Notes: generated from the letters alone by a model not told the origin. A stretch of DNA of 64,000 nt from Amphiscolops sp. MND2022 (GCA_964187785.1 OZ076409.1:34598001-34662000), one strand, 5' to 3'. Numbered from the stretch's first letter, positions 2,981 through 27,478 are shown. Made by a program: numbers and translations.

Positions 2981-4533
2981 TGTCGCAGGCGGCCGCCTGC
3001 GATGGCAACTGGTAATCAGTAGCCGTTGGTTACGACAGAGTATTGCCGGGAACGATCCCCCTCAACTAAAGAAGATCAAAGATTGGGCGCGACAATCAGG
3101 CTCAGAAATTAAAGTAAAACGAGACCGAAACTTTTACAACAAAACTATTTTGTACTGTTATTTTCAAACATGTAGCTATATATATTTAGTTGTTGTGTTA
3201 TATTAGTTACTTTTCAACATGTGAAATTGATCAAATACATTAATAATTGGACACCAAGGCGTACAGGTAGATGAAACGAGTTCAAATGTTTCCTCTCCTG
3301 TCGCTGAGGACAGCCAGTCCGATTATTAAATTGACCAATCACAGCGCAGTAGCTGGTTATATCATTCATTCTAGTATGACGCAGCTTTGTATAATTGCCG
3401 TACTCGGCCTTTGTTTGTCTGTTTATTTAATAGAGATTAAAGGACTGCTAGTCCAACTTGCCAAGCACCGCCTTTAATGCATCAATATATTGGTCCCTTC
3501 ATGTCGAATTGGACAGTGAGGACGTAATCTATTGCGCTAAGAAAGGTGCAATTATAATCATGAAGTGTTGCTATTTTATACTCCCCGGACTTACAGGGCT
3601 AAATACCATGCAATTTGGTAGTTGACATGAAAGTTTAAACATACATGTAAAATATGTAGCGTTGCATTGATGTTATGTTGAGAACGTTTTGTTCACATGA
3701 ACAATTCAAGCCGACAGGCTTTGATGTCTATTTTTAGACAATGATGTTATAACTTGATACTATTTATAGGTCACTGGTCCTAAAAATAGTCCCATGATGC
3801 TCCAAATTTGAGCTGTCACCCTAGCAAGGATATATAAACAAGGTACTCGTAGTCCTGTGGACACAATTTTGAGTACCTTCACCGAAAGCACTATTTTATC
3901 ATTTATACACTGTGAACAAGTACTATAAACTATTTGTTGGTAAAGTTTATTGGGATAATTCAAATATTTGCCCAATAGAAACATTTATGCCTTCCACAAG
4001 AAGACAGAAAGCTAAAGCTAGGAAATTGAGAGAGTTAGACATGATGTCTGATACAGACAACCTAGACATAATGCTGGGGAATTCAGGAGGAAATCCCATA
4101 GAGAGAGAGTTAGCAGACGCGATTGAATAGTCCTCTGTCCAAGGCGACTATGAGGCAAATGAGTACCGAAGGAACAATTATAGTTTCGCACAAGAAAATG
4201 AACCCCTTAGGCAAAATGAAGTTAGACAATCTTTTGAGACTTTCACGAACGAGACCAATCTTAGATTGTCTCAAGAAATGGATTCCATGATGTCCGTGGT
4301 CCATAACCAGATAAACAGAGCGATTAGCACTGCCATATCAGAAAGAGTCATTCCAGAGATTCAAAACATTATTAGCTCAATGTCGTCTTAAGGAAATAGG
4401 GACACTGAGGCCAGTAAATCCCCAAGTAGTCACAAGAATAGGGAAAACTCATCCGGCTTGAAAACAAAAATATTGAAAAAGGACTCACGGTCCGTTGGTG
4501 ATTTGAGAGACGCCACGGGAAGTGGTCACTACA
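2981..4533 (+). repeat. Element A 5' LTR (1553 bp)
   Basis: Starts TGTCGCAGGC and ends GGTCACTACA; colinear with 8479-10026. Confidence 0.93.
3760..3838 (+). promoter_or_regulatory. Putative LTR promoter of element A: two MEF2-consensus sites (CTATTTATAG 3760-3769, CTAAAAATAG 3780-3789) and TATATAAA (3831-3838)
   Basis: Exact CTA(A/T)4TAG matches; the TATA lies about 150 bp upstream of the gag ATG at 3987. The motifs are retained in the 3' LTR (CTAAAAATAG at 9269-9278). Confidence 0.55.
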
Positions 4534-4550
4534 TGGTGACAGGAGTGGGA
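3987..4550 (+). pseudogene. gag: LTR-encoded Gag N-terminus of element A (interrupted by stops, truncated at the deletion junction)
   Basis: MPSTRRQKAKARKLRELDMMSDTDNLDIMLG is homologous to element B Gag MPSTRKQKAKERRSRQLDMLSDVENVDIMLG. The frame continues across the LTR/PBS junction as HY-MVTGVG. Confidence 0.85.
4534..4550 (+). other. Primer-binding site TGGTGACAGGAGTGGGA (tRNA-Leu-like)
   Basis: Immediately follows the LTR-terminal CA and starts with TGG (complement of CCA). One mismatch to the complement of the common metazoan tRNA-Leu 3' end (TGGTGTCAGGAGTGGGA), from recall. Confidence 0.85.
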
Positions 4551-6658: not shown

Positions 6659-6765
6659 TTACCGCGTTTGAAATCTTCCGGAAGTAGACAAAATTGAACA
6701 CTTGTGAAAACTTGTGTTATTGGACGAAAGTACGTGAATCTGATTAAGAGCCCTGATCAAGCCTA
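6659..6765 (-). promoter_or_regulatory. Conserved upstream region / putative promoter of the antisense gene (element A)
   Basis: Minus-strand motifs CTTGATCAGGG, AGATTCAC, GTTTTCAC and ACTTCCGGAAGATT occur in the same order as upstream of the element B antisense ATG. Confidence 0.55.
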
Positions 6766-7836
6766 GTTCAGTTCATTTTGAAAAGAAGGCAACTTACTTG
6801 AACCGCGATGAGATGATACTGTTAGTGGTTGAGACGGCCTAAATCCAATGGACTGATGACTAGGATGCGTGGTTGAAGGCGGAAGAACAAGTTTGATTAG
6901 GATACGTCGGCAGTGGGGATTCGATGTCGATTATCCAGAAAACCCCAGATAACAACTGGAAGTAAGGATATGCGGACCAGGTGTCCCAGGAGGATTATGC
7001 GAAAGAATGTTCCAAATAAAATACGACTGAAGGACTAGATACAAATGGTAACTAACAACTAAACAATACTAGTGAGGAAGTACTTGATGGAAATTGAATG
7101 TAAAAGCAATAGAATGGTGAATCAACAATTTTACAAAGTGCCGAGATTGGAGTTCGTGGCTATACAGTTTGGTGTCAAATTTACAATTACTTACAAGTTA
7201 CGCTCTTATGTGGATAAAGTCTGCCAGCTATATCTACATTACTTTGCATTATTCTCGAAACTTCAATATTTCATGCAATTATTCCATTATCTTATAATAA
7301 TTCCATTATTTTACCATCTTATTTCAATTTATGTTATTTTCAAGGTCATTATATTTTATTCCTTATAAGGACTTACGGCCTTGGATCGCCATTTTACGAA
7401 TGGAATCATGTTTACGTAATCTGATTGGCTACCACCGAGAGGACGAGACAGCGTGGCTTTCGGACGTATCTTCACCCACTTAAAACCTTCAAGTGGGTCA
7501 TGAGTCATAAACACTCATCATGATGCTTAAGAAGTGAGAGTGGTGTTGAGGATCATGGGTGTCAACAATGCCGCTGTCGGCGATTTCAAAGTGATCAGAG
7601 TAACTAGTTGAAAGGATGTTACCCGGAAAATTCTGTTTTTGAAAAATAACTCAGAAACGAAAAGGAAAACCCGGGAAAACGAAAACCGAGAAACAACGAG
7701 ACACAGCAGTCCGATAAAGGAGAGGATCGCCATTATTGCAAATTCAATTGATCAAATCAGTTGCTCTAGAAACGTTGACTTAATTTGAAAATCCCACTTC
7801 TCCAAGAGTGCCAAAAAACTGTTAAAAGACAGATAT

Positions 7837-8567
7837 ATGTCTGATATTTCTGAAGTATTTCCAATGGATTTCCAAGGTGCTGTTCGATCAGAAGGGGCCC
7901 CGGCAATTATTTGCATTTCTAGTGATGAGGAGGAAATGATGGACTCAAAATGTGGGTGTGACGATTTATATTTATCGTCAGAAGAAGAATCGACAAATGT
8001 AGATATCATGGCTAGCTGCATCGAGAGACAGCTAGCTGAACCAATTGCCATTCCCAACTCCGCGACATCAAGTGCGCAAGTTAGGTGTGGGACACCTAAA
8101 CCAAGCTTCCCACCTTTTCCTACATTCTCTCAGCAGTTCTTTAATCTGGGTTCAGGAAATGGACCGGTGAGACGAGATGCCCGAATCAAGGCCAACCACC
8201 CCATCAACATTTGTAGGGATTCACGCCCTATGATCGATACACCGATGTCGCCTCCCCAGAAGACAGAGGGGCGTCCTGTATGCAAGAGACGCCAATTTGT
8301 TCATCTTCAACGGACACCGCCTCACGGAAATTGGTCCAACAAATTCAAGCGGAAACAGTCAATGATTACATCGATAAAACTGTCGTGCCGGGTGAAAACC
8401 TCGCGGAGACCGAGAGGATGAAAAGGGCCTTTCTGGACGGGATGGCAGCAGGCACATTTTTACTCATGCCAGGGGGAGTGTCGCAGGCAGCCGCCTGCGA
8501 TGGCAACTGGTACTCAGTAGCCTTTGGTTACGACAGAGTATTGCCGGGAACGATCCCCCTAAACTAA
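7837..8567 (+). pseudogene. ORF3 of element A (sense accessory ORF, frameshifted; C-terminus overlaps the PPT and 3' LTR)
   Basis: ORFs 7837-8421 and 8280-8567. The C-terminal RAFLDGMAAGTFLLMPGGVSQAAACDGNWY matches element B RNAFQAGMKAGSVILVPGGLSQAAACDSNYY. Homology probably extends upstream past a TGA at 7786. Confidence 0.75.
8469..8478 (+). other. Polypurine tract CCAGGGGGAG (element A)
   Basis: Purine run directly before the 3' LTR TG at 8479. Confidence 0.8.
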
Positions 8568-10026
8568 AGAAAATCAAAGATTGGGCGCGACAAACAGGCA
8601 AAGTAAAACGAGACCGAAACTTTTACAACAAAACTATTTTGTACTGTTATTTTCAAACATGTAGCTATGTCTATTTAGTTGTTGTGTTAAATTAGTTACT
8701 TTTCAACATGTGAAATTATTCAAATACATTAATAATTGGACACCAAGGCGTACAGGTAGAGGAAACGAGTTCAAATGTTTCCTCTCCTGTCGCTGAGAAC
8801 AGCCAGTCCGATTATTAAATAGACCAATCACAGCGCAGTAGCTGGTTAATTCATTCATTCTAGTATGGCGCAGCTTTGTATAATTGCCGTACTCGGCCTT
8901 TGTTTGTCTGTTTATTCAATAGAGATTAGAGGACTGCTAGTCCAACTTGCCAAGCACCGCCTTTAATGCATCAATAAAATGGTCCCTTCATGTCGAATTG
9001 GACAGTGAGGACGTAATCTATGGCGCTAATAAAGGTGCAATTATAATCATGAAGTGTTGCTTTTTTATACTCCCCGGACTTACAGGGCTAAATACCATGC
9101 AATTTGTTAGTTGACATGAAAGTTTAAACATACATGTAAAATATGTAGCGTTGCGTTGATGTTATGTTGAGGACGTTGCGTTCACATGAACAATTCAAGC
9201 CGACAGGCTTTGAAGTCTATTTTTAGACCATGATGTTATAAGTTGATACTATTTATAGCTCACTGGTTCTAAAAATAGTCCCATGATGCTCCAAATTTGA
9301 GCTGTCACCCTAGCAAGGGTATATAAACAAGGTACTCGTGGTCCTGTGGACACAATTTTGAGAACATTCACCGAAAGCAATATTTTATCATTTATACACT
9401 GTGAACAAGTACTATCAACAATTTGTTGGTAAAGTATATTGGGATAATTCAAATATTTGCTCAATAGAAACATTTATGCCTTCCACAAGAAGACAGAAAG
9501 CCATAGCTAGGAAATCGAGAGAGTTAAACATGATGTCTGATATAGACATCCTAGACATAATGCTGGGGAATTCAGGAGGAAATCCCATAGAGAGAGAGAG
9601 AGTTAGCAGATGCGATTGAACAGTCCTCTGTCCAAGGAGACGTTGAGGCAAATGAGTACCGAAGGAACAATTATAGTTTCGCACAAGAAAATGAACCCCT
9701 TAGGCAAAATGAAGTTAGACAATCTTTTGAGACTTTTACGAACGAGTTCAATCTTAGATTGTCTCAAGAAATGGATTCCATGATGGCCATGGTCCATAAC
9801 CAGATAAACAGAGCGATTAGCACTGCCATAGCAGAAAGAGTCATCCCAGAGATTCAAAACATTGTTAGCTCAACGTCGTCTTCGGGAAATAGGGACACTG
9901 AGGCCAGTATGTCCCCAAGTAGTCAGGAGAATAGGGAAAACTCATCCGGCTTGAAAACAAAAATATTGAAAAAGGACTCACGGTCCGTTGGTGATTTAAG
10001 AGACGCCACGGGAAGTGGTCACTACA
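8479..10026 (+). repeat. Element A 3' LTR (1548 bp), including a second, frameshifted copy of the Gag N-terminus from 9476
   Basis: Direct repeat of 2981-4533 with scattered substitutions and small indels. Confidence 0.93.
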
Positions 10027-10765: not shown

Positions 10766-11431
10766 TCAATCGGAATGTGATCTTGTGATGTCGCGATTTT
10801 GTTCGCTATTTGTAGAGTTTGTTGAACTCTCTCTAGACCTCAGTCTACTATTTTCCTGTGTAAAACATGTTCTAGAACGATTTTCCCACGTTTTCTGCGA
10901 ATTTCCTCTTTCGGCGTTCCACTCTAGCCCACTGGACCTTCGGTCCTTTAATGTGAAATCGGTCGACCTTGGGCTAGGATGTGGTCCGTTGGACTCCCGG
11001 TCCACCATGGTGAAATTAGGTCTCCCCTGCATTTCTAGTGTATTTTGGATGGAAGGAAGCACTGTACTTGTTATTGCAGCTGTAATTGCAGCCTTAATTT
11101 GGGGATTCAAACCAGTTTTAATTTCATTGAGTTTTCTAGACATTTGATTGGAAATTTCCTCGCTTATCAACCTAGAAGTCTCAATTGTAATTTCACTGTT
11201 TTCCCTGCTGTTGGTATTAAGTAAGGACCTAAAATCTTCTCCTATAGCTTTTGAGCTTTGTTGTGGTCTGCTAGACCCTGAGTCCAAATTCACTTCATTT
11301 TCGCTAACATTTTTCTCTTCATCTTCCCTAGAGTAACTTCCAAGCACTATGTCAACATTTTCTACATCGGACAGCATGTCTAACTGTCTAGAACGACGTT
11401 CTTTAGCCTTTTGCTTTCTCGTGGAAGGCAT
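10766..11431 (-). CDS. gag: Open Gag N-terminal ORF encoded by the element B 3' LTR (221 aa, last few codons in flanking DNA)
   Basis: Nearly identical to the first ~214 aa of the 24049-25800 Gag, with no internal stop. Expression is unknown. Confidence 0.6.
   Translation of the reverse strand: MPSTRKQKAKERRSRQLDMLSDVENVDIVLGSYSREDEEKNVSENEVNLDSGSSRPQQSSKAIGEDFRSLLNTNSRENSEITIETSRLISEEISNQMSRKLNEIKTGLNPQIKAAITAAITSTVLPSIQNTLEMQGRPNFTMVDRESNGPHPSPRSTDFTLKDRRSSGLEWNAERGNSQKTWENRSRTCFTQENSRLRSRESSTNSTNSEQNRDITRSHSD
10784..10788 (+). repeat. Target-site duplication TGTGA (left; right copy at 26795-26799)
   Basis: Identical 5-mer directly outside both termini of element B. Confidence 0.9.
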
Positions 11432-12424
11432 GAGAAGGGGATTTGAGTTTCAAAGTTAATTGCAAATATCAACTAACAAGATAATCCAAATCAACAAAGT
11501 ATGTATTAGCAGAGTTTTAAACTCAAGGTTCAGTATCGTGACAATATTATATTGACTTGTTTGTATCAAGATTGTGAAAGTTTTTCCCTCTCTCTCCAGT
11601 GTTCCCGCTCTTTATAGTTTGGGTGGCGTTACACACAGAATTATGCGAGTCATGGTTCTAAAAATAGCAATAGGTGGGGTTTTAGAACAGCTCTAGGGAC
11701 ATTACGTCACTATTTCATCATGTCTATAAGGACAAAAATAGCATCAAAGAGAAGCGGCTAAAGGTTGTAGTTGGAGATTATGACGTAATATAAATATGCA
11801 TGGAGGAATATTATTATGCCTGAATATACTATTTACATGTTTATATTTCCAATAATAACAGTACATGTCATTAGAATAATCACAAACAGTGTGAGTGGCA
11901 ATTACGCCAAATCGGACGTAACGTCCATGCGGCGTCACCAATTGTATAGCTAGTTCGATTTGATTGGTTAATATAGCACTCGACGTTGCGTACAATCAGC
12001 CACAATAACAGTACATTTGAACACGTTTCCTTACTGTGCTTCAATTGCATTCTAATACAGCATTCAAATTGATCATTTTACATTGCTAATTCCAATTCAT
12101 TTGGTACATTACTATTTCAACAATAATCAACAGGTAAATCAAGCACAAACTAACTATAATATTAAGCAACGGTAAATTACATAAAGTAGAGTGTTTTGTG
12201 ATTAATTTTAACACAATTGTTTGATGAGGCCGTATCGACCTAAGGTCCTTTATGTTTTGGACGCAGTTTCTCTATATTTGCCTCAATTTGAGTGAGGCCA
12301 TCCGTACCATCGGTCCATTGTTGTCAAACCTTCTAAATAGGGAGTACTCCTGGCGGGGGGTTAGATAGATCGTTTACTGAAGGGATCTGGTAGTAATTGC
12401 TGTCACAGGCGGCAGCCTGCGACA
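10789..12424 (-). repeat. Element B 3' LTR (1636 bp)
   Basis: Direct repeat of 25158-26794; about 17 substitutions counted by eye in the first 643 bp. Confidence 0.96.
11611..11667 (-). promoter_or_regulatory. Putative LTR promoter of element B (3' LTR copy): MEF2-consensus site 11658-11667 and TATAAA 11616-11611
   Basis: CTAAAAATAG lies 41 nt upstream of TATAAA on the minus strand; the 5' LTR copy is at 25981-26037. Confidence 0.55.
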
Positions 12425-13319
12425 GTCCCCCTGGGACTAGAATCACACTGCCGGCTTTCATTCCGGCTTGAAAAGCATTTCTCCTGCGAATCCTTTGAAT
12501 GTAATTTTCCTCAGGGATGTGTGTTTCCTCTAAATATCCCAAAGTATTCTCTTCTTGAATAGCCGCGTAAGACTTACCACACACTGTACATCCTCCATAT
12601 TGGATATAGTTGGGTGTTCCACAAATTCCGCTCGCACTAATTGTCATCCCGGAAATGTGGGGTTTTTTAATCCATTCACTTTCCTGACCTTGTTCTTCAG
12701 GGTATTCGCCATAATACTGTGCGACTGAAGGCCCTTGTTCCTCTAACGGTGGTGACAATGGGGAATAAGGTATTGGTTCCAATCCACTACACTGGGCAAT
12801 CTGGTGCCGCGAGTCTCCCTCTTTATATGTCCGTTGGGGTGGGTTCCCAACGAACCATTCAATCAGGCTATCGGATGGATCCATGGTTGACGCCACTGAT
12901 CCGGGTTGTCCATAATGCGATTGAGTTAGGTCGTACTCGTTAGCATCAAATTCGGTCGTCATTGCGCGTCCTCCCGCTAGTTGTGGTGGGAACATCGGGA
13001 CTTCTCTATAGCACGCTATAATTTCAATATCACTGTCGCACCCATCGTCTTGTTGAGAGTCTATTGGTATAGAAAGCACATCCACTTCCATATCCTCGTC
13101 AGAAGAATTATCAACTTCGCTCACTAGCGGTCCGATGAATTCTTCTACATTAAATTGTAGTGACATCTCAGCTAGATATCTTTCCAAAATAAGTTTTTGG
13201 CTATTTTGAATTGTGCTGCTTGATCGTAGTAAAGATTTGAGTTGAATGATTTGCTCTAGCCCGGCAGACCTCAGGTCCACTTTCGATAAGTTGGCGGGAA
13301 ATTTCAAGCGGGGTAACAT
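12333..13319 (-). CDS. ORF3 of element B: 328-aa acidic, proline-rich accessory protein of unknown function with a CxxC; overlaps the PPT and 3' LTR
   Basis: Uninterrupted ORF homologous to element A 7837-8567 (ERYLAEMS/DRYMSDIS, SSDED/SSDEE, PLSPP/PMSPP, PGGxSQAAACD). No evident signal peptide or transmembrane segment. Confidence 0.8.
   Translation of the reverse strand: MLPRLKFPANLSKVDLRSAGLEQIIQLKSLLRSSSTIQNSQKLILERYLAEMSLQFNVEEFIGPLVSEVDNSSDEDMEVDVLSIPIDSQQDDGCDSDIEIIACYREVPMFPPQLAGGRAMTTEFDANEYDLTQSHYGQPGSVASTMDPSDSLIEWFVGNPPQRTYKEGDSRHQIAQCSGLEPIPYSPLSPPLEEQGPSVAQYYGEYPEEQGQESEWIKKPHISGMTISASGICGTPNYIQYGGCTVCGKSYAAIQEENTLGYLEETHIPEENYIQRIRRRNAFQAGMKAGSVILVPGGLSQAAACDSNYYQIPSVNDLSNPPPGVLPI
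12425..12434 (-). other. Polypurine tract CCAGGGGGAC (element B)
   Basis: Directly upstream of the 3' LTR start on the minus strand. Confidence 0.8.
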
Positions 13320-14170
13320 AACTTGGAGTTTCCTCAGATTTTCCTCGGATTCCTTTTAAGTAAAGTTATATGTTTTCATAAATAGTAGCAGAAATCAGCT
13401 GAAAAGCTTCTCAATTGGTCCCTGAAGGCCTATCATCGTATTTGTCTAACAACTAGTGAGTTGTAAATTGCCAGTAACAGTGTTTACCAATGTTAAAGAC
13501 TGGTAAACAATAACTCGATCAAAGACCGACGGTCCGGCAGGCCTCATTCAAGATAAGACTAATGGCGTTTCATTAACCAATAATTCGCATGATTGAATAA
13601 CTAAATATGGTAAGGGAGATCAAAACTGTGAAGAACACAATTGAGTCGTACCTTTTAATTGCGAAATAAATTGAAATTTCATGGCTTTCACTGGCAGGTT
13701 CAAGACATGAGAAATGTGATAATGAAATGAAATGGTAGTGAATGGTAACTAATTGTTAAAGTACTAGCCACGACATCCATTTGTAGTTTAGCGTCTCATA
13801 AAAGTCTCAATAGTATTAGTCAGACTGTTAGTCTAGTTGGGTAAAAGTGCGTAGACAGGTGAGTATTGTATTGTGAATAATATATGAATAAAAGTATAAG
13901 TGCTTGAGGTACAGTAAACCCAACTGTCGTCATTTCTCTAACTACAAGTTACTTTCACTGGTTACTTCATCGATTCGTTCAAAGTGCTTCCCTCACTATC
14001 GGAGTGAACAGAACACGAGGACCTATAGTCTCCCTGGCCTCAACCAATTGTTTATCCAGATTCTCTAACCTGAGCAGGTTACAAACGCATCCCCTTCGAC
14101 AGCTATTCCAAGCAAGAATTCTGCTTCCCCACTATGGAGATAGCATCAGGTTGGTTCTTTAAATGTGTCT

Positions 14171-14293: not shown

Positions 14294-14564
14294 ATGGATT
14301 CATATTCAGGAAGTACACCGCGTAAATTTATCTCTTTCTATTTAGAACAAGAGACTAACGGCCAACCAACTCAGAAATTAGCTGAGGTTGAAGAGACTGA
14401 CAGGAACGAATTTTCAATCCCTGATACTGCTCACGATTTTCCAACCAGCAATCAACAATCGTCGAGTGAAATCAAAGAGAACGAGGTCAAACAATTACAG
14501 GCTCCCGACCCCTCGCACAGCAACAGTCGAGTAATAGCAGAGGGTAAGGACATTGAGCTCTGCC

Positions 14565-14780
14565 CGCCTCAGACATCTGAACTTGCCAAGGAGGACCAGC
14601 CAATGACTGAAGCCATGGACACAGAGTCCAACCAGCCTCAAACATCAGGACCTCCCAAGAGGGACCAGCCAATGATTGAAGCCATGGACACTGAGTCCAA
14701 CCAGCCTCAAACATCAGAACCTCCCAAGAAGGACCAGCCAATGACTGAACCCATGGACACAGAGTCCAGTCAGCCTCAGA
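14565..14780 (+). repeat. 69-bp coding tandem repeat, about 3 copies (DQPMTEAMDTESNQPQTSGPPKR)
   Basis: GACCAGCCAATGA begins at 14594, 14663 and 14732. Confidence 0.92.
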
Positions 14781-16625
14781 GTCATGAAGCTGCTTCCAGT
14801 AGCCAGCATGTTCAAGCAGAAGTCATGCAAATTGGGGTTAGCCAAGATCAGACTCCAACAGAGGTTTCGCCGTTGTCTAAGCTGCTTTGATCTGACGGAA
14901 GTGAATCAAATGAGAGCTGCCAGGCATTTTTCACGCGCAAAATGCAAGAACTTGGTACTGAGACCAACGAGGAGGGAACCCTAGCGGACCATGAAGCCTC
15001 CCAGAAGGAGAGTGAAAGTGAGTTAATAACTGTCTTTCCTGGCCAAGAGCAAAAGGAACGACCAGACCGACAGTTTCATCAGGTTCCTGCTGTAACATTC
15101 TTAGATACTGTTACAGCGTATTCGGCTTCAAGCAATTCCTCTGCCATTGGGAATTCTAAGAAAAGAGCCAAATTAGTACGACCTGCTACTCCTTTGCGCC
15201 CAGCTTTGCAGGACGATACCTCTAGTGAGCCGTCGTCCATAGCTTCTTCCACAACATCTAATGGTCTCCATCATGGCTTTGGTGAACCAGAGCAACCGAT
15301 CCGAACGGGTAGCAGCTCTGATAATGGGCTTGAGACCGATGCTGAGTCATCTAATGCAGGTGGTTCTACTATGGCCGATGCCCTAACTTCCGGGAGGTAC
15401 AATCCCTTGGTCGAAGTCGACAAAGCCTCCAGTCAATCAGCAAGTTTACCTCCTGCTCCAGCTGGTAAACCTGAACCGCTAAAAGTCAGTAGCTGAGCTC
15501 TATTGAAAGAGTATTTTTCTAAAACTGAACAGGTTGAGTTGCTTCGAGGTCACTCTACCATAGCCTTGACTGAAGATCAGATATCTAGCGTACTGAGGGT
15601 CGTAGCCGATGAGACTGCCAGGGCTTCTTACGAAGTGCTCGAGAATCTGGTATTCCGTGCCTGCATTCTTAGCTTAAACACCTCGGTACCAGGCAGGAGA
15701 GTCTCCAAGAAGTTTAATGTACGTAGCCTTTCACAGGGATCTGATCAAGGCGAATCCGAAACTGAAGCGGGAAGTGACACTAGTCATGGTATCCGTAGTG
15801 ATGACGACTTCGGGAGAATTGGCTACGCATATGAGCACTCCGAAACTGAAATAATTGGCAGACCACCTACTGCACAGCTCATTCCTGGGTGTGGCTCTAA
15901 TGACCAAGCGTCCCCTTGAGTTCAGCGTCAATAGTCCAGGATCTCAGACCCTTGCGGCGCTACAAAGAGAAGCCTTGCAGGATCAGAGTTCAAGTCGGGG
16001 CAATCCCAGCAACCGACGCATTCCCGCATCGAGAGGACGTACTAGGAGGCCGATTACTCGCTCCTGTAAGGTCATGAAGGAGGCGTATTTTAAGGGTATG
16101 GAGTGGACGAAGACTTTCGTGTCAGGGTCAGTCGATCCGCGATGGAACCCTTACAAATTTTATTGTCAAATTTGCAAGGCAAACATATCAATATATGGAA
16201 AAGGAGCCCGAGAAATCTTGCGACACCACTCTACCGAAAAGCACTTGAGGAAAGACCAAAGGTGGAGGTTCGAGCATCTATCTAAGGTAGACCCAGTTAC
16301 CCGCAAAGTTGTGCATCAAGTCAGGGGTAAAGACGGCAAACTCCTCACACCTTACCAGCTTGAGTTAGAATACCCAAAGTTCAAGGGTGTACCGTTGGTG
16401 GATATCGGCAAGAAGCTACCATTTTATGACGAATTCATGGCGGGTACTGATTACATGGCATCTTCTTTGGGCGACCGAGCAAAAATTCAGATTTCCATTT
16501 TGTGCCGATTTCTCACCCATTATGGGGATATTGATGTGCTCAAAGGATTCTGGAGCGACGTGGGAGTGATTGTGAACCACCAGGCACTGTTCACAGACTT
16601 CGATTGGAGCAGGGAAAGACTTTCA

Positions 16626-16759
16626 GTTAGTATTTTCACTTTACTCGGGCGTGTACATTGTTAGAGAATTGTAGTGGACCTAAGGTTCTTTCAGCCTCAT
16701 GCTAGGCGAGGTCGCCTAACTAGCTAAATTCTGACATAAAAGGCAAGATTGTGTTATAG
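16626..16759 (+). other. Predicted intron 1 (134 nt, phase 0) of the antisense gene
   Basis: CTTTCA|GTTAGT...GTGTTATAG|GTCATCTTCCATCAC joins RERLS|VIFHHLFLEMM in frame with ORF 16787. Confidence 0.8.
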
Positions 16760-17235
16760 GTCATCTTCCATCACTTATTCCTTGAGATGATGAATCACAT
16801 TGGAAGCCATATCTCTGAGTATTCTTTGGAATTCGCTCAAGAAGGAGTTTTCCTGCTGGTATTTATCCGATTTTGGCGTGATGACCAAATGTGTAAGGTC
16901 TTCTTGAAAAGGACCGGACGTCTCCTCAGCATCACTCAAGCTGAGGTGAGGCTTGTTTCCAACGTCATGGGCGTATTCTCAACGAAGCCCCACTTAGTCA
17001 GTTGTACTGGAACAACGCACCGAAGTATCGTCTTGCTGGACCAATGCCCCTACGCAGCTTATGGAATCCAGAGTCCCCCCGTTTTGAAGAGCTGTCTCTG
17101 AAGACCATAATGCATAAGAAGGGGTACAGTGTGTTCGGAAAAATATACTTCTTCTCGGTTGTGCAATTTGTCATCGTGTGTCTGGGAGGCTGTCTAGATC
17201 AGGACTGGATGTTGGTGTCTCCTGAATTGTCGAAG

Positions 17236-17305
17236 GTTGGTTTAAGACTTTGTTCTTTGCATCTAGCTCCTAGGATTTTAGACTGAGCCCTTCTTTTGTA
17301 TTCAG
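17236..17305 (+). other. Predicted intron 2 (70 nt, phase 0)
   Basis: TCGAAG|GTTGGT...TTCTTTTGTATTCAG|GCAATT joins the ORF 17002 frame to the ORF 17324 frame (one TAA remains at 17321). Confidence 0.65.
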
Positions 17306-17440
17306 GCAATTAGATCATGCTAATTGGATATCAATGGTCTACCAGTCCTCTGCCAAGAACTGTTGCGTCACTGGAGCAAAGTGGTTACTTTCTTGTCGAA
17401 AAGCACCCCTACCCAAGAAGGCACAGGAGTCCGCAAACAA

Positions 17441-17507
17441 GTAAGAGTTCTCTGGCTCCTTAGACCTACGGTCCAATGCAGTTTCTCAACTGAGTGTTTC
17501 TTTTCAG
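17441..17507 (+). other. Predicted intron 3 (67 nt, phase 0)
   Basis: AAACAA|GTAAGA...GTTTCTTTTCAG|CCCCAG; the following 82-nt exon is open (PQSLEWSLVYDDFFPSRLELFYRLVRD). Confidence 0.7.
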
Positions 17508-17589
17508 CCCCAGAGCTTAGAATGGTCTCTTGTTTACGACGACTTCTTTCCAAGTAGACTCGAGTTGTTCTACCGATTAGTGCGCGATT

Positions 17590-17657
17590 GTTAGTGTTGT
17601 CATTCATAGTTTTGCCATATACCATTGGGTTCAAAGTTTTCACTCATTCTTTTATAG
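17590..17657 (+). other. Predicted intron 4 (68 nt, phase 1)
   Basis: GATT|GTTAGT...TTCTTTTATAG|TCACC restores the frame of ORF 17588-18946 (LVRD-F-TSSFTTNLKRRR). Confidence 0.7.
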
Positions 17658-18972
17658 TCACCAGCAGTTTCACCACCAATCTCAAGCGGCGCCGTGATCG
17701 AGGCTTCCATGTGTATCGAGAGCTAGGTCAATATCTCTTCAAGCTGGGCAGACGTTGCGTCAGTTCCAGCAGCATTCCTGAAGAAAGTGATTTTCCCGGG
17801 GTCTACAGTCTCGTTATGGCTGACACTAAGGCTCTGTCAGTAGCTGACTTCCTGTCCCGGTCCAAATTGAGCGAAAAACTAGCAACTGCATGCAAGCTGA
17901 AAGCGGAAGCCGAGATGAGTGAGAAGAAAAACGAAAAGCTGACTCCAGCTGAAGTTACAGAGAACATTAAAGCTGATTTTGGACGCACTGCTCGTAGTTA
18001 TGTAGTCACCCTATTCGGTACTGCTCAGAAGCTCCAGAGATTCACCAGCGATATAGTGAGAGGACTGGGTTCTTTTGATTTGGACGTGATGTTGGTCGAC
18101 CCAATATCTTTGGCGACCTTTTGTTTCAAGGAGTTGTTTACCAGTTTCCGTTTGCGAGGTGTGTTGCTGGCAGACGAAGAGACGATTTACTTCGAAGAGT
18201 ATTTCTCATTTCTTGACGAACTCCGCAAACTTCACCCCAACATCTCCCAGCCAAAACTGCTTATTCCTGACGTTATTGAGTTTGTGTGTGGACAGGAGTC
18301 CTACAGGTCTCGACCTCATCTCATGAGGATTTTCAGACTCAGTTGTCTTTGTCTAGATGCTCCTCGCGTCTCCTTTCCCCCTGTCAAGTTTGGGACAGTC
18401 CATACTGATGACCCAAAAAGTCCAATGTTCGATGTTGTTACACCGTTGCAATCGTACCTCAGCAATGTTGCCCGCGGGGTAGAAGTTTTCACCTCAGAGT
18501 CTTCGATCTCCTATTTTCCCGCTCTGGAACCGACTTTTGGGTCAACTGGGCTAAGGGGCATTTACAGTCCCTGGAGTGACTTGGATAAGTTTGGATGGGC
18601 TGAGATCAATGACGTCATCAATAGTGTGACGCCCAAAGGCCCGAAGGTCTCCGCCGCAGAGGATGCCCCTAGTACCAGTAAAGCCTCATCGTCTTTTATG
18701 GTGCCAAAGCCAGGGAAGAGGCGTAGTCACTTGATTTCAGATGAAGAGCTAAACAAGTCCGCTGAGCGTTTAAATGCTAGTTTAGATAAGTCCTTATTGT
18801 ACCATATGTACAATTGTCATTTTAGTTTTTTGTACAGTGCTTCTAAAACTTTTCGTATAGACACTTTGGGATTCTATTTAGTGTTACTGTATTCTTTGTC
18901 TTTTATTCAGTCAATTCCGCAAAGATACTATTCTGCAATTGTTTAATCAGGACAGTTAATTTACAATTCTGG

Positions 18973-21900
18973 CTAATATCTGTATTCGTCGTTAAAGTTG
19001 GAGGTGGGGTTAGGTCGTAGGTTATATTTTCCTCCCCTAGGGCAAATCTAATACTTCGGACACGATAGTATCACTCCCTCCTGACGATTGTTGATCGTCA
19101 ATCCCATCATTTATGCGTTCTGAACGTGTTTTTTTCAAGCGGAGCGAATTCATCATTTTCGTGTGGCCCTGTGGACCTAAGGTCCACGTCGGTGAAAGTT
19201 TCGTCTGGCGCTCTGGCGCTCTGGCGTCATTTTCTTGAGGCCTGGTGGACGTAACGTCCACGTCGGTGAAAATTTCGTCCGGCGCTCTGGTATTGTTGGC
19301 GTAATCATTAGAAGTGTCTAGCGCTTCTCGACATGTAGGAATTGCGGTTTCTTCAGTGGAATTGGGAAATTCTCCGAAATTGGTATCCCAAGTGATGACA
19401 TATAGGTCATCTTGCGGAATAATAATTTCATCGTCCGGTTGCAAATTCCCTTCCGGTCTGGTGTCTCGTAGGACTGTGTTCGGTTCATATTTGCGTAGTC
19501 TGATGCGGTGTAAAATTTGCGTTTTGTTAGAATTTAGTTTTCTGACTATATAGTTTTCATTTGGCAAGACATTTTCTACCATATAGGGTCCTGTCCATCT
19601 GTATTCGCGAAATGGAATTTTCGATCCCTGGTGGTCGGCGATAGGTTGCAGTATAAAACAGTAGTCGTTCTGTTTCAAGGGGGCCGCTTTGGCCTTCCGG
19701 TCGTAATATTCTTTGTACTTCAAATAGGATTGCATAATGTTTTTCTTTGTTTAATCAAGTAAAATTTGCGTCCGGCGCTGAAAATCATCTGCAAAGTCTG
19801 TGGTTGGTAGGACTTTCGGGTTGGGATTAAGGCCCAATTTGTGATCCAATATATTATACGGAATTCGTCCGTGAAATATTCTAGATGGTTCACAACCTAG
19901 GGTAGCGTGATAGGTCGTATTATAATTTAATACGGCTAAAGGCAAATGTTTGTGCCACTGTCGCCTGTAGTCCCCTGAGGCCATCTTGAGGTTTGTTTTG
20001 AGACTGGCATGGGTACGTTCTAATTTGCTTATTGTTTGCGGGTAATTGTAGTTGCGCATTTTATTCGAATTCCGAGAATTTGAGCTACTTCGGCGACCAG
20101 TCTGGACGTAAAAGCCGTCCCTTTATCCGTGATCAAGGTAGTAGGCAAATAGGTATGTTTGGTCATTATGTCTATAATAACCTTTGCCGTGTTTGTGGCC
20201 GAAGCGTCAGTAACTGGATATGCAAAAAGATATCTTGAAAACACATCCATTGCAGTTATGATGTTTTCATAACCTCCGCTGGGGGGCAGGTTCGGTAACA
20301 AATCATTTTGCATTGCGTCTTCCGGACCTAAGTCCCATTCAGGCAAGTTGAGCAATTCGGGAGTTATGGATGGGTTTGGGACTCTTTTTTCTTTAATGCA
20401 AATTTCGCATCCTTGAACCCATTTTTTAACAATTTTTGCAATGCCAGGGTAGTAATATTTTTGGCGAATTCCGACGAGCATCTTGGATATTCCAGGGTGT
20501 TTATTGGCTTTGCCGTGTAGGGATTCAAATAGTTCATGTACCAGATGTTTAGGTAAAAGCATCTGATTGTATTTGACAGCTCCTGTTTCATCAAAATACT
20601 GTCTAGTAATAATTTCATCCATAACGGACAGTCGGTCCATTTGGCGACAGTAATGTTGGTAACGAGTATCTTGCAGGAGGATGGTCTCAGAATACCTTTC
20701 TTTCAGTATTTTTAGGCGCAATTGTTGCAAAATGACGTCGTTGTTTTGCTCCACTGCTATAGAGTTCGTGTAGGATAGTTTTTGAAGCGTGGAGAGTTTG
20801 TGATAGTCACTTTTGTGTGTAGTAAATTTTTCGAATAAAATATCAGGTATTTGATTTGATGGATGGTCCCTAGCGTCTTTTTTGCGCTGTAAAATTTGTT
20901 CTTCCGTCTCGTCATCATCCTCTGTATAGAAGATTTGTTCCTCTTCCGAAACTCCGGCCGATTGGACATGTAGTTCGATCGGTGTTGTAGGAATATCTTC
21001 TCTGATTCTGAGGAATAATTTCTCTTTTGGAGAGATCTCCAGACGTGACAGGTAATCAGCCGCTGTGTTGTTTTTGCCAGGGATGTGTGCTATTGTGAAG
21101 TTGAACTGGATTACATAATCACAAGCATTCCATAATGTCGGCGGAATAATTTTAGTTTGAAAAAATCGCGTGACGGACTTGTTGTCCGTGAGTATAATCA
21201 CCGGTTTTGGGGTTCCCCAAAAGATATGTCCAAATTCCTTGAAGGCAAAGAAAATTGCTAAGAATTCCTTGGCATAGATGGACATTTTCAATTGGGTAGG
21301 ACTGAAGGTCTTGGATCCATAAGCTACTGGTGCGAAAGCTTTCCTCGTAGAAGTGTACTTCTCGAGTGGATCGTCCTCGATGAGAACTGCGTACCCTGCG
21401 GCCGAATAGCTGGCATCGGTCATAAGGGCTATCTGCTTGTTCGGTAAGGGTTGTTTGAGTGCCAGTTCGCAACATCGATCAAGAGCCTTGTTTATCTCGG
21501 TAAATTGTGCCAATAGGTCCGGTGTTACCAGGACTTTTTCATCTTTAGTGAGCAGTTTGAAAAACGGCGTTAGTTTTTCTGATAGTCTTGAGATGTAGTT
21601 TCGGTAATAGTTCAAAAATCCCAAGTAACGCTGTAGCGCTTTCTTGGATTTCGGGAATTTCGTATTTTCTAGGAAATTTTGGACCCGTGGTCTCTGTGGC
21701 TTCACTCCAGCAGGAGTGATGGTGCGTCCCCGAAAGTCGATTTCCGTTGCGCCAAAATGGCATTTATGAATCGTATGCTTGAGACCGGCTTTTTGTGTGC
21801 ATTGGAATGTGGCCCTCAGGTTGTTGACGAGTTCTTCAGCATCGTTAGCAGCATTGCCAATATCATCAACATATTGCGCGCATTGGTCTGCTTTGATGAC

Positions 21901-24046
21901 TTTGTCCAAGTATTCGCGCATGAAACTAGAGAAGGCCGATAGGGCTCTGCTGAGGCCCGGTGCCAATCTTCTGTACGCGAAAGATCTGCTGGCAAAATTG
22001 AAAGCAAGCATTTCAATGGACCGTTGGTCCGCCATTTGTAGGCAATGGTAAGCTTGCGAACAGTCCAACTTACAGAATAGCTTCTTCCCAGCCATGTGTT
22101 GGGCCGCGTCTGTAAGCGTACTTACTGGATGGTTATTGTTGATGTAATCATCCGATATCAAGTTGTTTATTTTACGCAAGTCGACCAAAAGTCGCAGTTT
22201 GCCATTGGGTTTCTTTTGTGCAAAAATGGGGCTTGCGTACTTAGAGAATGGGAGTGTTGTAATGATCCCATAGCGATGTAGTAAGGCTAGTTCCACAAGG
22301 ATGTCTTCTTTGAGGTTAAATGGGGTTGGTAAACTTTGACTGTAGGCCGGAGAGTCGTCTTTCGAGGTCAATTTGGGTCAAGTCTTCGTTCATGACGATT
22401 TCAAATCGATGTCTTGCGAATATATCATGGAATTGAACACGTAGGTCTTCGATGCGGGCTATTTCAGCAGGTTGGAGCATAGAGTCTGTCCAATCAAAAT
22501 TGGATAGGAATTGACGTCTCGACTCAGAGTCGTTCTGAGGATTAAGTTTTTCCAATTCCTGGAGGTTGATCAGTTCTGACAAAATCCGTTTTTGAATCGG
22601 TGTATGATGCTGAGGATCCCCAGAGTCCTCTGGTGTTCGAAACCAGTAGTTTTCCTTGAAGTACTCAGGCTTAGTAGATTTGATCAAGCTGCTTGCATAG
22701 AAAGCAGCGTTTTCCGGATTGTCCTGCAAAACGTGCCAGGTGGTCACCGGGTCGATAGGTTTGACATATTTCATCTGTTCCGGCGTAAGGACAGTGAAAT
22801 TAGCAACTTGTGTACCTCTTTTAAGGGTATAGGGACTGTCGAAAAAATTGTTCAGGTGAACCGATACTCGACCATTGGTCAATGTGACTAGAGCAGCACA
22901 GAAAGCAATATCGCCATCATCCGTAAGGGTGTTGCTCGGTTGAAGGATCCCGGTAACTGTAGTATCCTCGTACAGTTGTGAAGCCATGAGGACCGAGTGT
23001 CGGTCATTAGGTGGGATGGTTACATCCTCTCTAATGCAAAGGGATTCCATGACATTTGTATATTTGTGATCTGCAGTTTTGAGCTGCATTGAGAAGAAAG
23101 GAAAATTTAGGACGCCTTGTCGCATGTCCAGAATGGTGTTATTCCTTTGAAGGAAAGAAAGACCAATTAATGGACTGGTGAGTTTCTCCATGACTATAAA
23201 GATTTCATAGAAATCTATGTCGCCGACTTCAAATTTCAATTCGACGGTGCTTTTAGGATCTTCCAGCTGTCCGTTTGCAACCATTATTTGGAAGTTGGGA
23301 GCTGGACCCTCTTTAATAATAGACTGAGGGGCCAATAATCGTATTTTACGTAGATCAGCTTCAGGGATTGCGCTAGATAGAGCTCCCGTGTCTACAAGGC
23401 CATCTAGTGTTAGTTCGCCAAAATCCATTGGAAAATAGAGCATTCGTCGTTTGTATTTGAGGCCAAGATTGGCAGTCAGCGGCACATAGTCCGGTTCCCC
23501 TGTTCTGGTGACCAGGGTGCTCACATAGCGTGCCGCAACGGCTGTGGCCAAGGAGACCTGTGGTCCCTCATGGTGAAATTCATCACCGACATTGGAGTGA
23601 GTGGTTTGATGGGCGAGCTGTGCGCCATGTTGCCATGGGTCAACTCGTGCTTTGGTAAGAACTGTATTTAGGGCTTGGTCAGATTCAAAAGAATCTGGTT
23701 CTATATTCGAGTTCTGTTTGTCAAAATTGTGGTAGAAGTACAGATGATATTGATTGTAGCAATTAGCGTCCCAATAGGGGTCAAAACCATAGCCGGGGTC
23801 AGGATAGTATGGGTTATAGTCATCAATGAGGGGTATAAGTCGTATAGTAGTAGTATCAGTTTGTAGTCTGTTGGACATAGAGTCCAAAGTGGTCTGAAAA
23901 TTAGGTGGAGTTTTCATCTGCTGCTGCCAGTCAGCTGATGAAGTTTCTTTAAGAGCTGTATAATACTCAGTGTAATATATATTTGGAGGGTCGGATATTA
24001 TGTACTGTCGTACACGGAGTTTTTCATGTAATTGGAGTCGTGGCAA
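18973..24046 (-). pseudogene. pol: Pol polyprotein (aspartic protease, dUTPase-like spacer, reverse transcriptase, RNase H, integrase), broken by frameshifts near 22370, 20050, 19745 and in the C-terminal tail
   Basis: PR LVDTGA; RT KLRLLVDLRKIN, KLDCSQAYH, YVDD; RH TDAS, KEFLAI, TDNKS, AADYLSR; IN HHCC (LHG...HPG...CEIC), TDKG, ERTHASL; tail RGGKYNLRP...YRY* ending at 18973. Confidence 0.95.
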
Positions 24047-24048
24047 AT

Positions 24049-25800
24049 CTAGTTTTTTGGATTCTTTAAGATGGACGTGGTTTGTTTATTTTTCACGTCG
24101 TCTTGGCTGGTGGACTTATCGGTGGCCGTGGTGTCATCCAGTTTAAGGTTTTTGGGCTTGAGGTGGGCTCCAGCGCCTTTCCAACATCGTTCCGCCGGGT
24201 GGTTCGTTTTGTCGCAAGTCGGACATTTGGGATATTCTTTCTTTGTATCCTGCCCTTCATTGCGGCGTTGTTCTTCCTTTCTTTTAAGTTTGCGGCAATC
24301 GTCTTTGACATGTCCAGGTTTCTTGCAATAGTTGCAAGTAATGTTTGGATCAATGCCAGAGGAAAGAAGGCCAGTTCCCGGTCGTGTTGCTGTAGGGGCA
24401 GTGGACATTGTTGGTACTGGAATGTCGTCCCCCTCCTCAAGTCCATTGAGCTCAAGCTCTCGTTCTAGATGGGTGACAATTTCCTCATAGGTGGCGTTTT
24501 CAAGTCTAGCCATATTGACGGAGCGTTTCAATTTTGGCGGCAACTTGGCATAGAGGAGACTATCGAACATGGCCTGGGCGTTCTGGCCAAACGCCTTTTC
24601 AGCTCCTTGGTTTAATTCCCCAAGGAAGTCGGGTAGTTTCATGGTGTTTGGATCAACCACCAATCTGTGCCATTTGTGTTTGGCGGTCGCCTGGGATTCA
24701 GGTTTAACGTATTTCCGACGAAATACAGCTAGAATGTCTTCCAATGTTTGCCTGTTTGCCGTATTGATGGTACGGAAAGTTTGTAACAGTGAATGAAAAA
24801 GATTGATTTTCATCGTTTCGGTCATATCAGGTTGCATTTTTATCATTGTGTGAAAGAGATCTTCAAAAAGTTCGAATTTCTCTGATTTGCCGTCGAAAGT
24901 CAGTGTAGTCGTGCTGACTGGGCGTACCATCAGTGTTTGTGCTGATGGACGGCTGTTCATGCCGACTAGTACTTCTGCAAGACGGTTAATGGGATCAGAA
25001 GGAACAGTTGGTGTTGTGGTCTCAGGGACCTGGGGAATTGTATCCTGAGACTCGTCATTGTTGGAATTTTGACGTTGCAGGGGATCTCGAGATAGCATGG
25101 GACGTCCAGTGAGAAACTCGGGAACCATATGTGGGGTAGGTTTGGCTCCTGTCACCATGTCGCGATTTTGTTCGCTATTTGTAGAGTTTGTTGAACTCTG
25201 TCTAGACCTCAGTCTACTATTTTCCTGTGTAAAACATGTTCTAGAACGGTTTTCCCACGTTTTCTGCGAATTTCCTACTTCGGCGTTCCACTGTAGCCTA
25301 CTGGACCTTCGGTCCTTTAATGTGAAATCGGTCGACCTTGTGCTAGGATGTGGCCCGTTGAACTCCCGGTCCACCATGGTGAAATTAGGTCTCCCCTGCA
25401 TTTCTAGTGTATTTTGGATGGAAGGAAGCACTGTACTTGTTATTGCAGCTGTAATTGCATCCTTAATTTGGGAATTCAAACCAGTTTTAATTTCATTGAG
25501 TTTTCTAGACATTTGATTGGAAATTTCCTCGCTTATCAACCTAGAAGTCTCAATTGTATTTTCACTGTTTTCCCTGCTGTTGGTATTAAGTAAGGACCTA
25601 AAATCTTCTCCTATAGCATTTGAGCTTTGTTGTGGTCTGCTAGACCCTGAGTCCAAATTCACTTCATTTTCGCTAACATTATTCTCTTCATCTTCCCTAG
25701 AATAACTTCCAAGCATTATGTCAACATTTTCTACATCGGACAGCATGTCCAACTGTCTAGAACGACGTTCTTTAGCCTTTTGCTTTCTCGTGGAAGGCAT
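24049..25800 (-). CDS. gag: Gag polyprotein (583 aa) with two CCHC zinc knuckles; first ~214 codons lie inside the 5' LTR
   Basis: CNYCKKPGHVKDDC and CPTCDKTNHPAERC; capsid-like FDGKSEKFELFEDLF region; directly upstream of pol. Confidence 0.93.
   Translation of the reverse strand: MPSTRKQKAKERRSRQLDMLSDVENVDIMLGSYSREDEENNVSENEVNLDSGSSRPQQSSNAIGEDFRSLLNTNSRENSENTIETSRLISEEISNQMSRKLNEIKTGLNSQIKDAITAAITSTVLPSIQNTLEMQGRPNFTMVDREFNGPHPSTRSTDFTLKDRRSSRLQWNAEVGNSQKTWENRSRTCFTQENSRLRSRQSSTNSTNSEQNRDMVTGAKPTPHMVPEFLTGRPMLSRDPLQRQNSNNDESQDTIPQVPETTTPTVPSDPINRLAEVLVGMNSRPSAQTLMVRPVSTTTLTFDGKSEKFELFEDLFHTMIKMQPDMTETMKINLFHSLLQTFRTINTANRQTLEDILAVFRRKYVKPESQATAKHKWHRLVVDPNTMKLPDFLGELNQGAEKAFGQNAQAMFDSLLYAKLPPKLKRSVNMARLENATYEEIVTHLERELELNGLEEGDDIPVPTMSTAPTATRPGTGLLSSGIDPNITCNYCKKPGHVKDDCRKLKRKEEQRRNEGQDTKKEYPKCPTCDKTNHPAERCWKGAGAHLKPKNLKLDDTTATDKSTSQDDVKNKQTTSILKNPKN
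24052..24058 (-). other. Putative -1 ribosomal frameshift heptamer A AAA AAC at the gag-pol junction
   Basis: CCA AAA AAC TAG at the end of gag; the pol ORF is in the -1 frame. Confidence 0.75.
25146..25157 (-). other. Primer-binding site TGGTGACAGGAG (tRNA-Leu-like), translated as part of gag (MVTG)
   Basis: Follows the LTR-terminal CA; same 12 nt as the element A PBS. Confidence 0.85.
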
Positions 25801-26794
25801 GAGAAGGTGATTTGAGTTTCAAAGTTAATTGCAAATATCAACTAACAAGATAATCCAAATCAACAAAGTATGTATTAGCAGAGTTTTAAACTCAAGGTTC
25901 AGTATCGTGACAATATTATATCGACTTGTTTGTATCAAGATTGTGAAAGTTTTTGTCCTCTCTCTCCAGTGTTCCCGCTATTTATAGTTTGGGTGGGGTT
26001 GCACACAGAATTATGCGAGTCATGGTTCTAAAAATAGCAATAGGTGGGGTTTTAGAACAGTTCTAGGGACATTACGTCACTATTTCATCATGTGTATAAG
26101 GACAAAAATAGCATCAAAGAGAAGTGGCTAAAGGTTGTAGTTGGAGATTATGACGTAATTTAAATATGCATGGAGGAATATTATTATGCCTGAAAATACT
26201 ATTTACATGTTTATATTTCCAATAATAACACTACATGTTATTAGAATAATCACAAACAGTGTGATCGGCAATTACGCCAAATCGGACGTAACGTCCATGT
26301 GGCGTCACCAATTGTATAGCCAGTTCGATTTGATTGGTTAATATAGCACTCGACGTTGCGTACAATCAGCCACAACAACAGTACATTTGAACACGTTTCC
26401 TTACTGCGCTTCAATTGCATTCTAATACAGCATTCAAATTGATCATTTTACATTGCTAATTCCAATTCATTTGGTACATTACTATTTCAACAATAATCAA
26501 CAGGTAAATCAAGCACAAACCAACTATAATATTAAGCAACGGTAAATTACATAAAGTAGAGTGTTTTGTGATTAATTTTAACACAATTGTTTGATGAGGC
26601 CGTATCGACCTAAAGTCCTTTATGTTTTGGACGCAGTTTCTCTATATTTGCCTCAATTTGAGTGAGGCCATCCGTACCATCGGTCCATTGTTGTCAAACT
26701 TTCTAAATAGGGAGTACTCCTGGCGGGGGGTTAGATAGATCGTTTACTGAAGGGATCTGGTAGTAATTGCCGTCACAGGCGGCAGCCTGCGACA
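25158..26794 (-). repeat. Element B 5' LTR (1637 bp)
   Basis: Direct repeat of 10789-12424, followed by the PBS. Confidence 0.96.
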
Positions 26795-27478
26795 TGTGAA
26801 TTCTGAAAAACTCCTGCTGTACGATTCTTTAAACAATCGAATTTGAAATTTAGCTTTTTGTTTATACAAAAAAGCCGTTACAAAACAAGTTGAACTTTCT
26901 TTAGTTGCAAGATATACAAAAATTGATATTAAAAAGGGCTTCTCCAAAGCGCCTTGGACATAAGGGGCGATTTTATAGTTCTTGGAATTGATGTTGAATT
27001 ATGTTCGAGTTGATTTTTCACGCCTCTATTGAAACCTAATTCAGTGTGTCTTCAATGATTGTATTAACTCACGGGAAAAAGCTTTAAATTTTTCATACTT
27101 TTAAAAGCCCAATTAAAAACCAGTTAAACTGGAAAGTTTGTCAATTATGAATAAATTGTATATATTTTCAAATCTAGCTTTTCAATTTCAAAAATATAGA
27201 ACTGCTAATTATTCAATGAGAAAGAGGAACTTCACGTTGGTTGGTTGTGGGAAAAAGTTATCAAATCGCCAAAATGTTATCAAGAAACAAACACAGAGGC
27301 AATGCTCAAAATTTATGTGGTGATTAGATTACTGTTAAAAAAATTATTATTAGCAAATTTGGGGCTATGAGAATGTCGCTTTAAAAATTCTGAAAACAGT
27401 GTAACGTCATCCTGTGATCAACGAAATTTTGGCAAATTTTGAAAAATTCGTTTAAAACTGACGTGGCACTTGAACATG

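Follow-up and report, generated by a model that had tools for sequence, protein, structure and literature searches.

The stretch analysed here (the window) is 64,000 nucleotides of DNA from Amphiscolops sp. MND2022 (GCA_964187785.1 OZ076409.1:34598001-34662000) and contains a 16 kb long terminal repeat (LTR) retrotransposon of the Ty3/Gypsy type on the minus strand. Between pol and the 3′ LTR this element carries a gene that runs in the opposite direction, on the plus strand, with five exons and ~1,400 codons from an ATG at 14294 to an end at ~18800. A first-pass annotation of the window had described an antisense protein at 16075..18400 as a catalytically degenerate relative of the hAT transposases carried by a retrotransposon. 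The motifs on which that description was based are all found on the plus strand within this antisense gene, though the gene itself is longer than the range given. Its features are as follows:

14294..16625, plus strand: exon 1, an extended N-terminus that is disordered for the most part but includes a small helical domain, followed by a C2H2 finger and a helical domain
16164..16244, plus strand: CxxC-x16-H-x5-H zinc finger, with the ligands kept in 96 (Cys), 97 (Cys), 97 (His) and 99 (His) of 99 copies
16760..17235, plus strand: exon 2, RNase H-like core (predicted fold)
17306..17440, plus strand: exon 3, at the place of the hAT TRW helix as judged by eye
17508..17589, plus strand: exon 4, where an all-helical region begins
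17658..18796, plus strand: exon 5, all-helical insertion-like and C-terminal region with a low-complexity tail

WSRERLS closes exon 1 at 16625 and VIFHHLF opens exon 2 at 16760, followed by YSLEF and VFIRFW at ~16820-16875, RGLGSFD at ~18059 and RPHLMRIFRLSCLCL at 18311-18355. A C2H2 finger is present as annotated, though the conserved spacing before the histidines is x16 and not x17: with x16 the first histidine is kept in 97 of the 99 copies, the next histidine in just 69. The N-terminal ~600 residues of the protein, which are extra relative to hAT transposases, are mostly disordered and acidic, with basic patches seen by eye. Amid this disordered region, at 15497-15700 in the window, is a small conserved helical domain (residues 262-327 of the database relative P0114; predicted local distance difference test score (pLDDT) 50-67). 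The window's copy of the gene is broken: it has three stops (14888, 15494 and 17321), two frameshifts (near 15910 and near 17075) and, in exon 2, an in-frame loss of 9 nt near 16810. The frame of exon 5 is open up to 18946.

Splicing and selection

We sampled 123 loci by similarity to the antisense gene alone, spread across subfamilies. GT donors are present at introns 1-4 in 110/116, 104/109, 106/107 and 98/100 of the copies scored, and AG acceptors in 114/116, 104/109, 106/107 and 98/100. Introns 2, 3 and 4 are missing, exact to the base, from 5, 10 and 9 loci respectively, and intron 1 is absent in P0114. Since, in a quick tree of 69 exon 5 pieces, the groups without these introns fall within intron-bearing clades, the absences are likely to be losses. 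Exact loss of an antisense intron is best explained by recombination with the complementary DNA (cDNA) of a spliced antisense mRNA, and these losses therefore count as indirect evidence that the antisense gene is expressed. An exon-junction pattern gave 5 genomic matches against 0 in controls; the pattern for the junction of exons 1 and 2 gave 0 matches in G000.

The antisense gene is under purifying selection across subfamilies. Calculated on stop-free pieces alone (99, 91, 69 and 69 of the 123 loci, respectively) and over pairs that are non-independent, the ratio of nonsynonymous to synonymous substitution rates (dN/dS) in unsaturated bins ranges from 0.05 to 0.17 in the finger exon and from 0.09 to 0.26 in exon 2; in exon 5 it is 0.07-0.22 and in the integrase 0.03-0.14, with between-subfamily synonymous distances >0.75 excluded as saturation artefacts. 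The conservation of the spliced structure in 123 loci, the purifying selection and the 5 to 0 result for the exon-junction pattern confirm the gene beyond chance.

Abundance, linkage and module swapping

A genome search seeded with the finger exon yielded 7,861 candidates at first look, and the 150 that were scored are all at least 73% identical. That the gene is carried by a retrotransposon, as had been annotated, is borne out by an integrase on the opposite strand, downstream of exon 5, in 122 of the 123 sampled loci; in the sole exception, the sequence retrieved contains the antisense gene repeated in tandem. A tandem duplication of the gene within a single locus is found at L108. Identity to the reference copy goes down to 31% in exon 5 and is at least 67% in the integrase.

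Relatives of the antisense gene in the databases number 399, with lengths of 330-2,000 residues, and all 120 of those listed come from ENA. Because the best match to P0114 in this genome is only 38% identical, the family probably extends beyond this genome. When 1.84 billion representatives were searched with a profile, 460 matches came back, the best 150 of them mostly exon-sized open reading frames (ORFs); the result has no bearing on a hAT relationship. Longer homologues of exon 5 were searched for and none was found.

Co-segregation of the parts of the element was followed in 36 of 40 fetched loci, giving 630 pairs. Where the antisense genes are near-identical (29 pairs), the LTR segments are in every case at least 80% alike. 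There are 49 pairs in which the integrase is near-identical (>93%) but the antisense genes are different. The antisense gene is a swappable module, and this speaks both against tight contact of its product with the integrase and against a strict lock to one LTR type. Discordant nearest relatives for integrase, antisense gene and LTR are seen at L042, L066, L087, L093, L094, L099, L106, L111 and others.

Predicted fold and relation to hAT transposases

Two natural pieces of the protein were folded separately. The first is P0114 (827 amino acids), in which the finger exon is contiguous with exon 2. Its model contains the finger, the helical domain and a core of three strands-helix-strand-helix, with a pLDDT of ~90 over residues 660-740. 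In Foldseek this N-terminal half matched Hermes chains at ranks 1-7 among 350,542 chains (E 0.028-0.087). A VIA second look placed 137 of its residues on Hermes 112-264 (Z 5.5, root-mean-square deviation (rmsd) 4.5) and also 184 residues on Hermes 112-455 (Z 5.7, rmsd 7.5). Integrase alignments to the same half are shorter, at ~80 residues; no integrase alignment is as long as that to Hermes, since the latter also takes in the helical domain ahead of the core. The second piece is exons 4 and 5 of a subfamily without intron 4 (365 amino acids, pLDDT 72.6). For this C-terminal half the VIA-wide search put Hermes at rank 1 of 48,161 (Z 6.5, rmsd 5.7, 189 residues, Hermes 279-609), with the next row at 5.5.

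The combined matches of the two halves cover Hermes 112-609 in order. As two separate halves each return a protein named beforehand, in order and over most of its length, the models make it probable that the antisense gene is of hAT origin. The annotated kinship to hAT transposases is thus supported as an interpretation, both halves being structurally similar to Hermes with individual scores that are weak; for each half one structure search gave Hermes as the top match, whereas sequence-profile tests against hAT were all negative. As a lead only, the neighbours of the finger region in the language-model Atlas are unnamed arthropod clusters first and then FAM200/ZBED5, DUF4371 and zf-BED (0.88-0.91); exon 5 gave no usable match there.

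The predicted fold resembles the hAT proteins (Hermes; Tip/THAP12-like, FAM200/ZBED5-like) in running from a finger through a helical domain to an RNase H-like core, and probably on to a helical insertion and C-terminal helices in the same order. Unlike them, the antisense gene has no recognisable Asp-Asp-Glu (DDE) triad, CxxH or TRW, has neither terminal inverted repeats (TIRs) nor an 8-bp duplication, bears the additional N-terminal residues described above and moves by reverse transcription. A donor-like hAT was not found in the genome by a DUF4371 profile, a short motif pattern, PF18658 or hmmsearch. The genome does hold several ordinary hAT families with DDE (L071-L085, L206, L214, L215), none of them similar in sequence to the antisense gene.

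Catalytic site and terminal repeats

In a reference set of 68 true hAT proteins the first Asp is present in 65, the second Asp, CxxH and the catalytic Glu-Arg in all 68, and the three residues of TRW in 68, 68 and 59. An Asp at the inferred site 1 of the antisense gene, at the end of strand 1, is found in 0 of 91 copies; the residue there, which follows Y-S-L-E-F, is Ala in 45, Glu in 22, Val in 8, Ile in 6, Gln in 6 and Thr in 4. At strand 4, the inferred site 2, an acidic residue is likewise found in 0 of 91, and the strand ends in T/S/L-G. Neither CxxH nor TRW is recognisable at the corresponding positions, and ERxFS is absent after the conserved LFRLSCLC helix in 69 copies, a segment that is coil in a model without the core on which it would pack. 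The annotated degeneracy of the catalytic residues is therefore upheld, in that no intact DDE is recognised, with an ambiguous register at site 1; a canonical triad is unlikely under either register. In a comparison of the 25 longest repeats of the window with the 25 longest of locus L067, no TIR pair common to both brackets the antisense gene. The gene shows none of the marks of an active hAT transposon, namely TIRs with an 8-bp duplication, DDE and CxxH/TRW.

Proposed origin and role

Our preferred reading, to which we give a probability of roughly 0.55, is that the spliced antisense gene is hAT-derived, has likely lost its triad and encodes a nuclear DNA-binding regulator that would keep the element transcribed. 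The fuller proposal, that a whole hAT transposase was domesticated by the retrotransposon as its own transactivator or anti-silencer and that its variants are swapped among subfamilies amid an arms race with host silencing, is more tentative and falls a little short of even odds.

An ancestral hAT would have inserted opposite pol, lost its TIRs and catalytic residues and been retained. Its antisense placement would give the gene its own spliced transcript and would not shorten the genomic RNA; in that RNA the introns are in reverse and so would escape removal during retrotransposition. Their exact loss at some loci would come from occasional recombination with cDNA made from the spliced antisense mRNA. 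The conserved finger and scaffold suggest DNA binding, and the finger and helical domain would bind the DNA of the element. The acidic disordered N-terminus with its basic patches suggests, by eye, a nuclear activator, and may recruit activating or anti-silencing factors. Transposases by themselves activate cognate copies in a sequence-specific manner and lose DDE on co-option, according to the accessible part of a recent preprint that there makes no mention of LTR elements (10.64898/2026.08.24.746577).

A number of results weigh against this reading. The VIA-wide search with the N-terminal half is led by retroviral integrase cores (Z 6.6), with Hermes not among the 50 rows shown, and for the C-terminal half Foldseek gave no match and the VIA second look was likewise blank. 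Both Z scores for Hermes are <8, which according to the tool may mean a common arrangement. Pfam, run on window pieces and alignment members, found no hAT family, leaving zf-BED and PF05699 unmatched, and sequence-profile searches of the PDB gave nothing meaningful. With hhalign, three antisense-gene alignments were set against hAT alignments of two kinds, one Tip/THAP12-like (68 rows) and one Ac-like (12 rows); all 5 comparisons were negative (probability <1%), the query profiles being shallow, at an effective number of sequences of 2-3, and hmmsearch against the genome's own hAT ORFs was also negative. The catalytic positions were assigned through motif and secondary structure, with no residue-level superposition; the Glu of Y-S-L-E-F, two residues ahead of the inferred site 1, is invariant (90/91), and at the inferred site itself 22 of the 91 copies have Glu. 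In addition, 12 of the 630 pairs share an LTR segment (>85%) yet differ in the antisense gene, so a strict lock of the protein to its own LTR is not supported.

If the origin is hAT, the protein may serve integration rather than transcription, by anchoring the pre-integration complex at selected DNA or chromatin, or by shielding the ends of the cDNA. This would fit the conserved finger and the apparent retention of an entire transposase scaffold, whose normal task is to hold DNA ends. The pairs with near-identical integrases but different antisense genes, however, argue against a tightly co-evolved contact, and a separate antisense transcript fits action in trans; we consider an integration role unlikely.

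Catalytically dead transposases can also act as repressors. A repressor or competitor of hAT origin, keeping the element's copy number in check or acting against rival subfamilies or hAT elements of the host, would be consistent with the many divergent types that are maintained and shuffled across subfamilies, but the lineage is very abundant, as the number of first-look candidates shows, and this role seems quite unlikely.

The gene may have a different origin, as a captured host gene or another RNase H-fold relic with a helical insertion (Mutator, P, Kolobok, Transib), in which case the Hermes matches would reflect a sparse library. Every sequence-profile test was negative, the Z scores are modest and the Mutator-like ISCth4 is at rank 12 in the Foldseek search with the N-terminal half, few such transposases having been solved. 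Set against this, the two separate halves share their top match and are colinear upon it, and the Atlas features favour hAT families; such an origin appears very unlikely.

An enzyme that remains active, as a nuclease or in the manner of a transposase, through a non-canonical acidic site is likewise very unlikely. Strand 1, which holds the invariant Glu, is where the integrase alignments start, and by integrase residue numbering their register could put this Glu at the first catalytic site; with a shift of two residues it could be the equivalent of site 1. Several further acidic residues are also conserved. The lack of any acidic residue at strand 4, the loss of CxxH, TRW and ERxFS and the absence of TIRs all oppose this.

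That the gene is simply a nested DNA transposon, or a passenger in decay, as the broken copy in the window might suggest, is largely refuted by the near-complete linkage at a fixed position, by purifying selection down to ~31% identity and by the absence of flanking TIRs.

Relation to known systems

Plant Ty3/Gypsy elements likewise have antisense ORFs between pol and the 3′ LTR (Grande gene23, RIRE2, Retand TRP28). According to the accessible text of two sources, antisense ORFs at this position are known in plant and fungal Gypsy elements, with an origin stated to be unknown, and those of plants are present in nearly all copies and are proposed to be nuclear regulators (PMC7264820, PMC11963269). 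Gypsy antisense accessory ORFs have been known for decades, and a review, in the part available, calls their origin and function unknown and describes the plant ORFs as without similarity to other transposable elements. Unlike these, the gene here is spliced and encodes a full-length protein with a predicted transposase fold, and Pfam found no match to TRP28 (PF04195) in it.

ZBED and FAM200 are host-domesticated dead transposases. MUSTANG and FAR1 are also host-domesticated transposases, as given in the accessible part of one source (10.64898/2026.08.24.746577). The antisense protein resembles host-domesticated transposases in the apparent loss of catalytic residues and retention of DNA-binding parts; the domesticator here would be a multicopy retrotransposon, not a host gene. 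VANC, TnpA and the AtMu1 transposase are likewise element-encoded and fast-diverging between subfamilies, TnpA being transposase-derived, as far as the accessible text goes (10.64898/2026.08.24.746577, PMC13547354). They serve their own DNA transposons, whereas the antisense gene would put a class II protein to use for a class I element. Captured extra genes are also known in animal Gypsy-like elements, among them the bdelloid LTR-element ORF3s (PMC5408684) and the Burro domains (PMC6431247), where the cargo is env, esterase, exonuclease and apoptosis/ubiquitin domains; the accessible portions of those texts name no transposase.

In the literature covered, which lies outside Repbase, subscription journals and supplements, there is no report of the antisense gene or of an LTR element with a captured dead transposase. 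Transposase-derived regulators are already known from hosts and from DNA transposons. The case described here offers an antisense Gypsy ORF a likely origin, in a DNA transposase, and a testable function. If true, it would be a domestication of one transposon by another across classes and the first time that an accessory antisense ORF of Gypsy elements has been traced to its source, would mean that mobile elements, and not hosts alone, domesticate transposases, and might partly account for the abundance of the lineage in a 1-Gb genome. Binding specificity could be tested directly on the many natural variants, whose LTR and pol partners have been shuffled.

The carrier element and its surroundings

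The remaining features of the carrier element are listed below.

10784..10788, no strand: target-site duplication TGTGA, left, identical to the 5 bases at 26795-26799
10789..12424, minus strand: 3′ LTR, with ends TGTCGC...GCGACA, 97.5% identical to the 5′ LTR
12333..13355, minus strand: orfX, a second accessory ORF of ~300-340 amino acids, sense to pol and overlapping the 3′ LTR
12425..12435, minus strand: purine-rich tract resembling a polypurine tract, from sequence
19037..24085, minus strand: pol, with protease, dUTPase-like (weak), reverse transcriptase, RNase H and integrase by Pfam, in Ty3/Gypsy order
24049..25800, minus strand: gag with zinc knuckle, starting within the LTR
25146..25157, minus strand: primer-binding site, complementary to the 3′ end of tRNA-Leu(CAG)
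25158..26794, minus strand: 5′ LTR, pairing with 10789-12424, with TG...CA ends
26795..26799, no strand: target-site duplication TGTGA, right

The element has the anatomy of Ty3/Gypsy, with an LTR pair ending in TG...CA, a duplication of the 4-6 bp class, gag followed by protease, reverse transcriptase, RNase H and integrase, a primer-binding site and a polypurine tract. Troyka was considered as its identity and excluded, as the termini and target duplication differ from those given in the accessible description. The pol of the window's copy is interrupted, and the dUTPase-like Pfam match in it is weak (E 0.06). orfX has a CxxC near its C-terminus and a conserved C-terminal part, with a dN/dS of 0.10-0.18; an open match of at least 220 amino acids is present in 27 of 40 loci, and a Pfam search with it gave no match.

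The gag frame begins inside the LTR (25158-25800 and 10789-11431), each LTR bearing ~210 gag codons, and most subfamilies are alike in this. A tRNA-Leu(CAG) matching the primer-binding site is present in the genome, with a tRNA call at one of four loci scanned. The pattern for the tRNA-Leu 3′ end has 810 matches genome-wide, and hundreds of tRNA-Leu-like 3′ ends lie in tandem at G000:C8 ~35.59-35.65 Mb with a spacing of ~296 bp.

At 2981-10026 the window holds a related element in the opposite orientation, without pol and with LTRs that are 94.7% identical, which is likely to be non-autonomous. It retains exon 1 of a divergent antisense gene (~4800-6600, minus strand) and part of orfX. A long satellite array with a unit of 47 bp occupies ~30600-64000. 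Elsewhere, loci L208-L212 contain a repeated ORF family of ~1,000 amino acids in at least five near-identical copies; it has C2H2 fingers and, by eye, what looks like a SET domain, and is possibly another mobile element.

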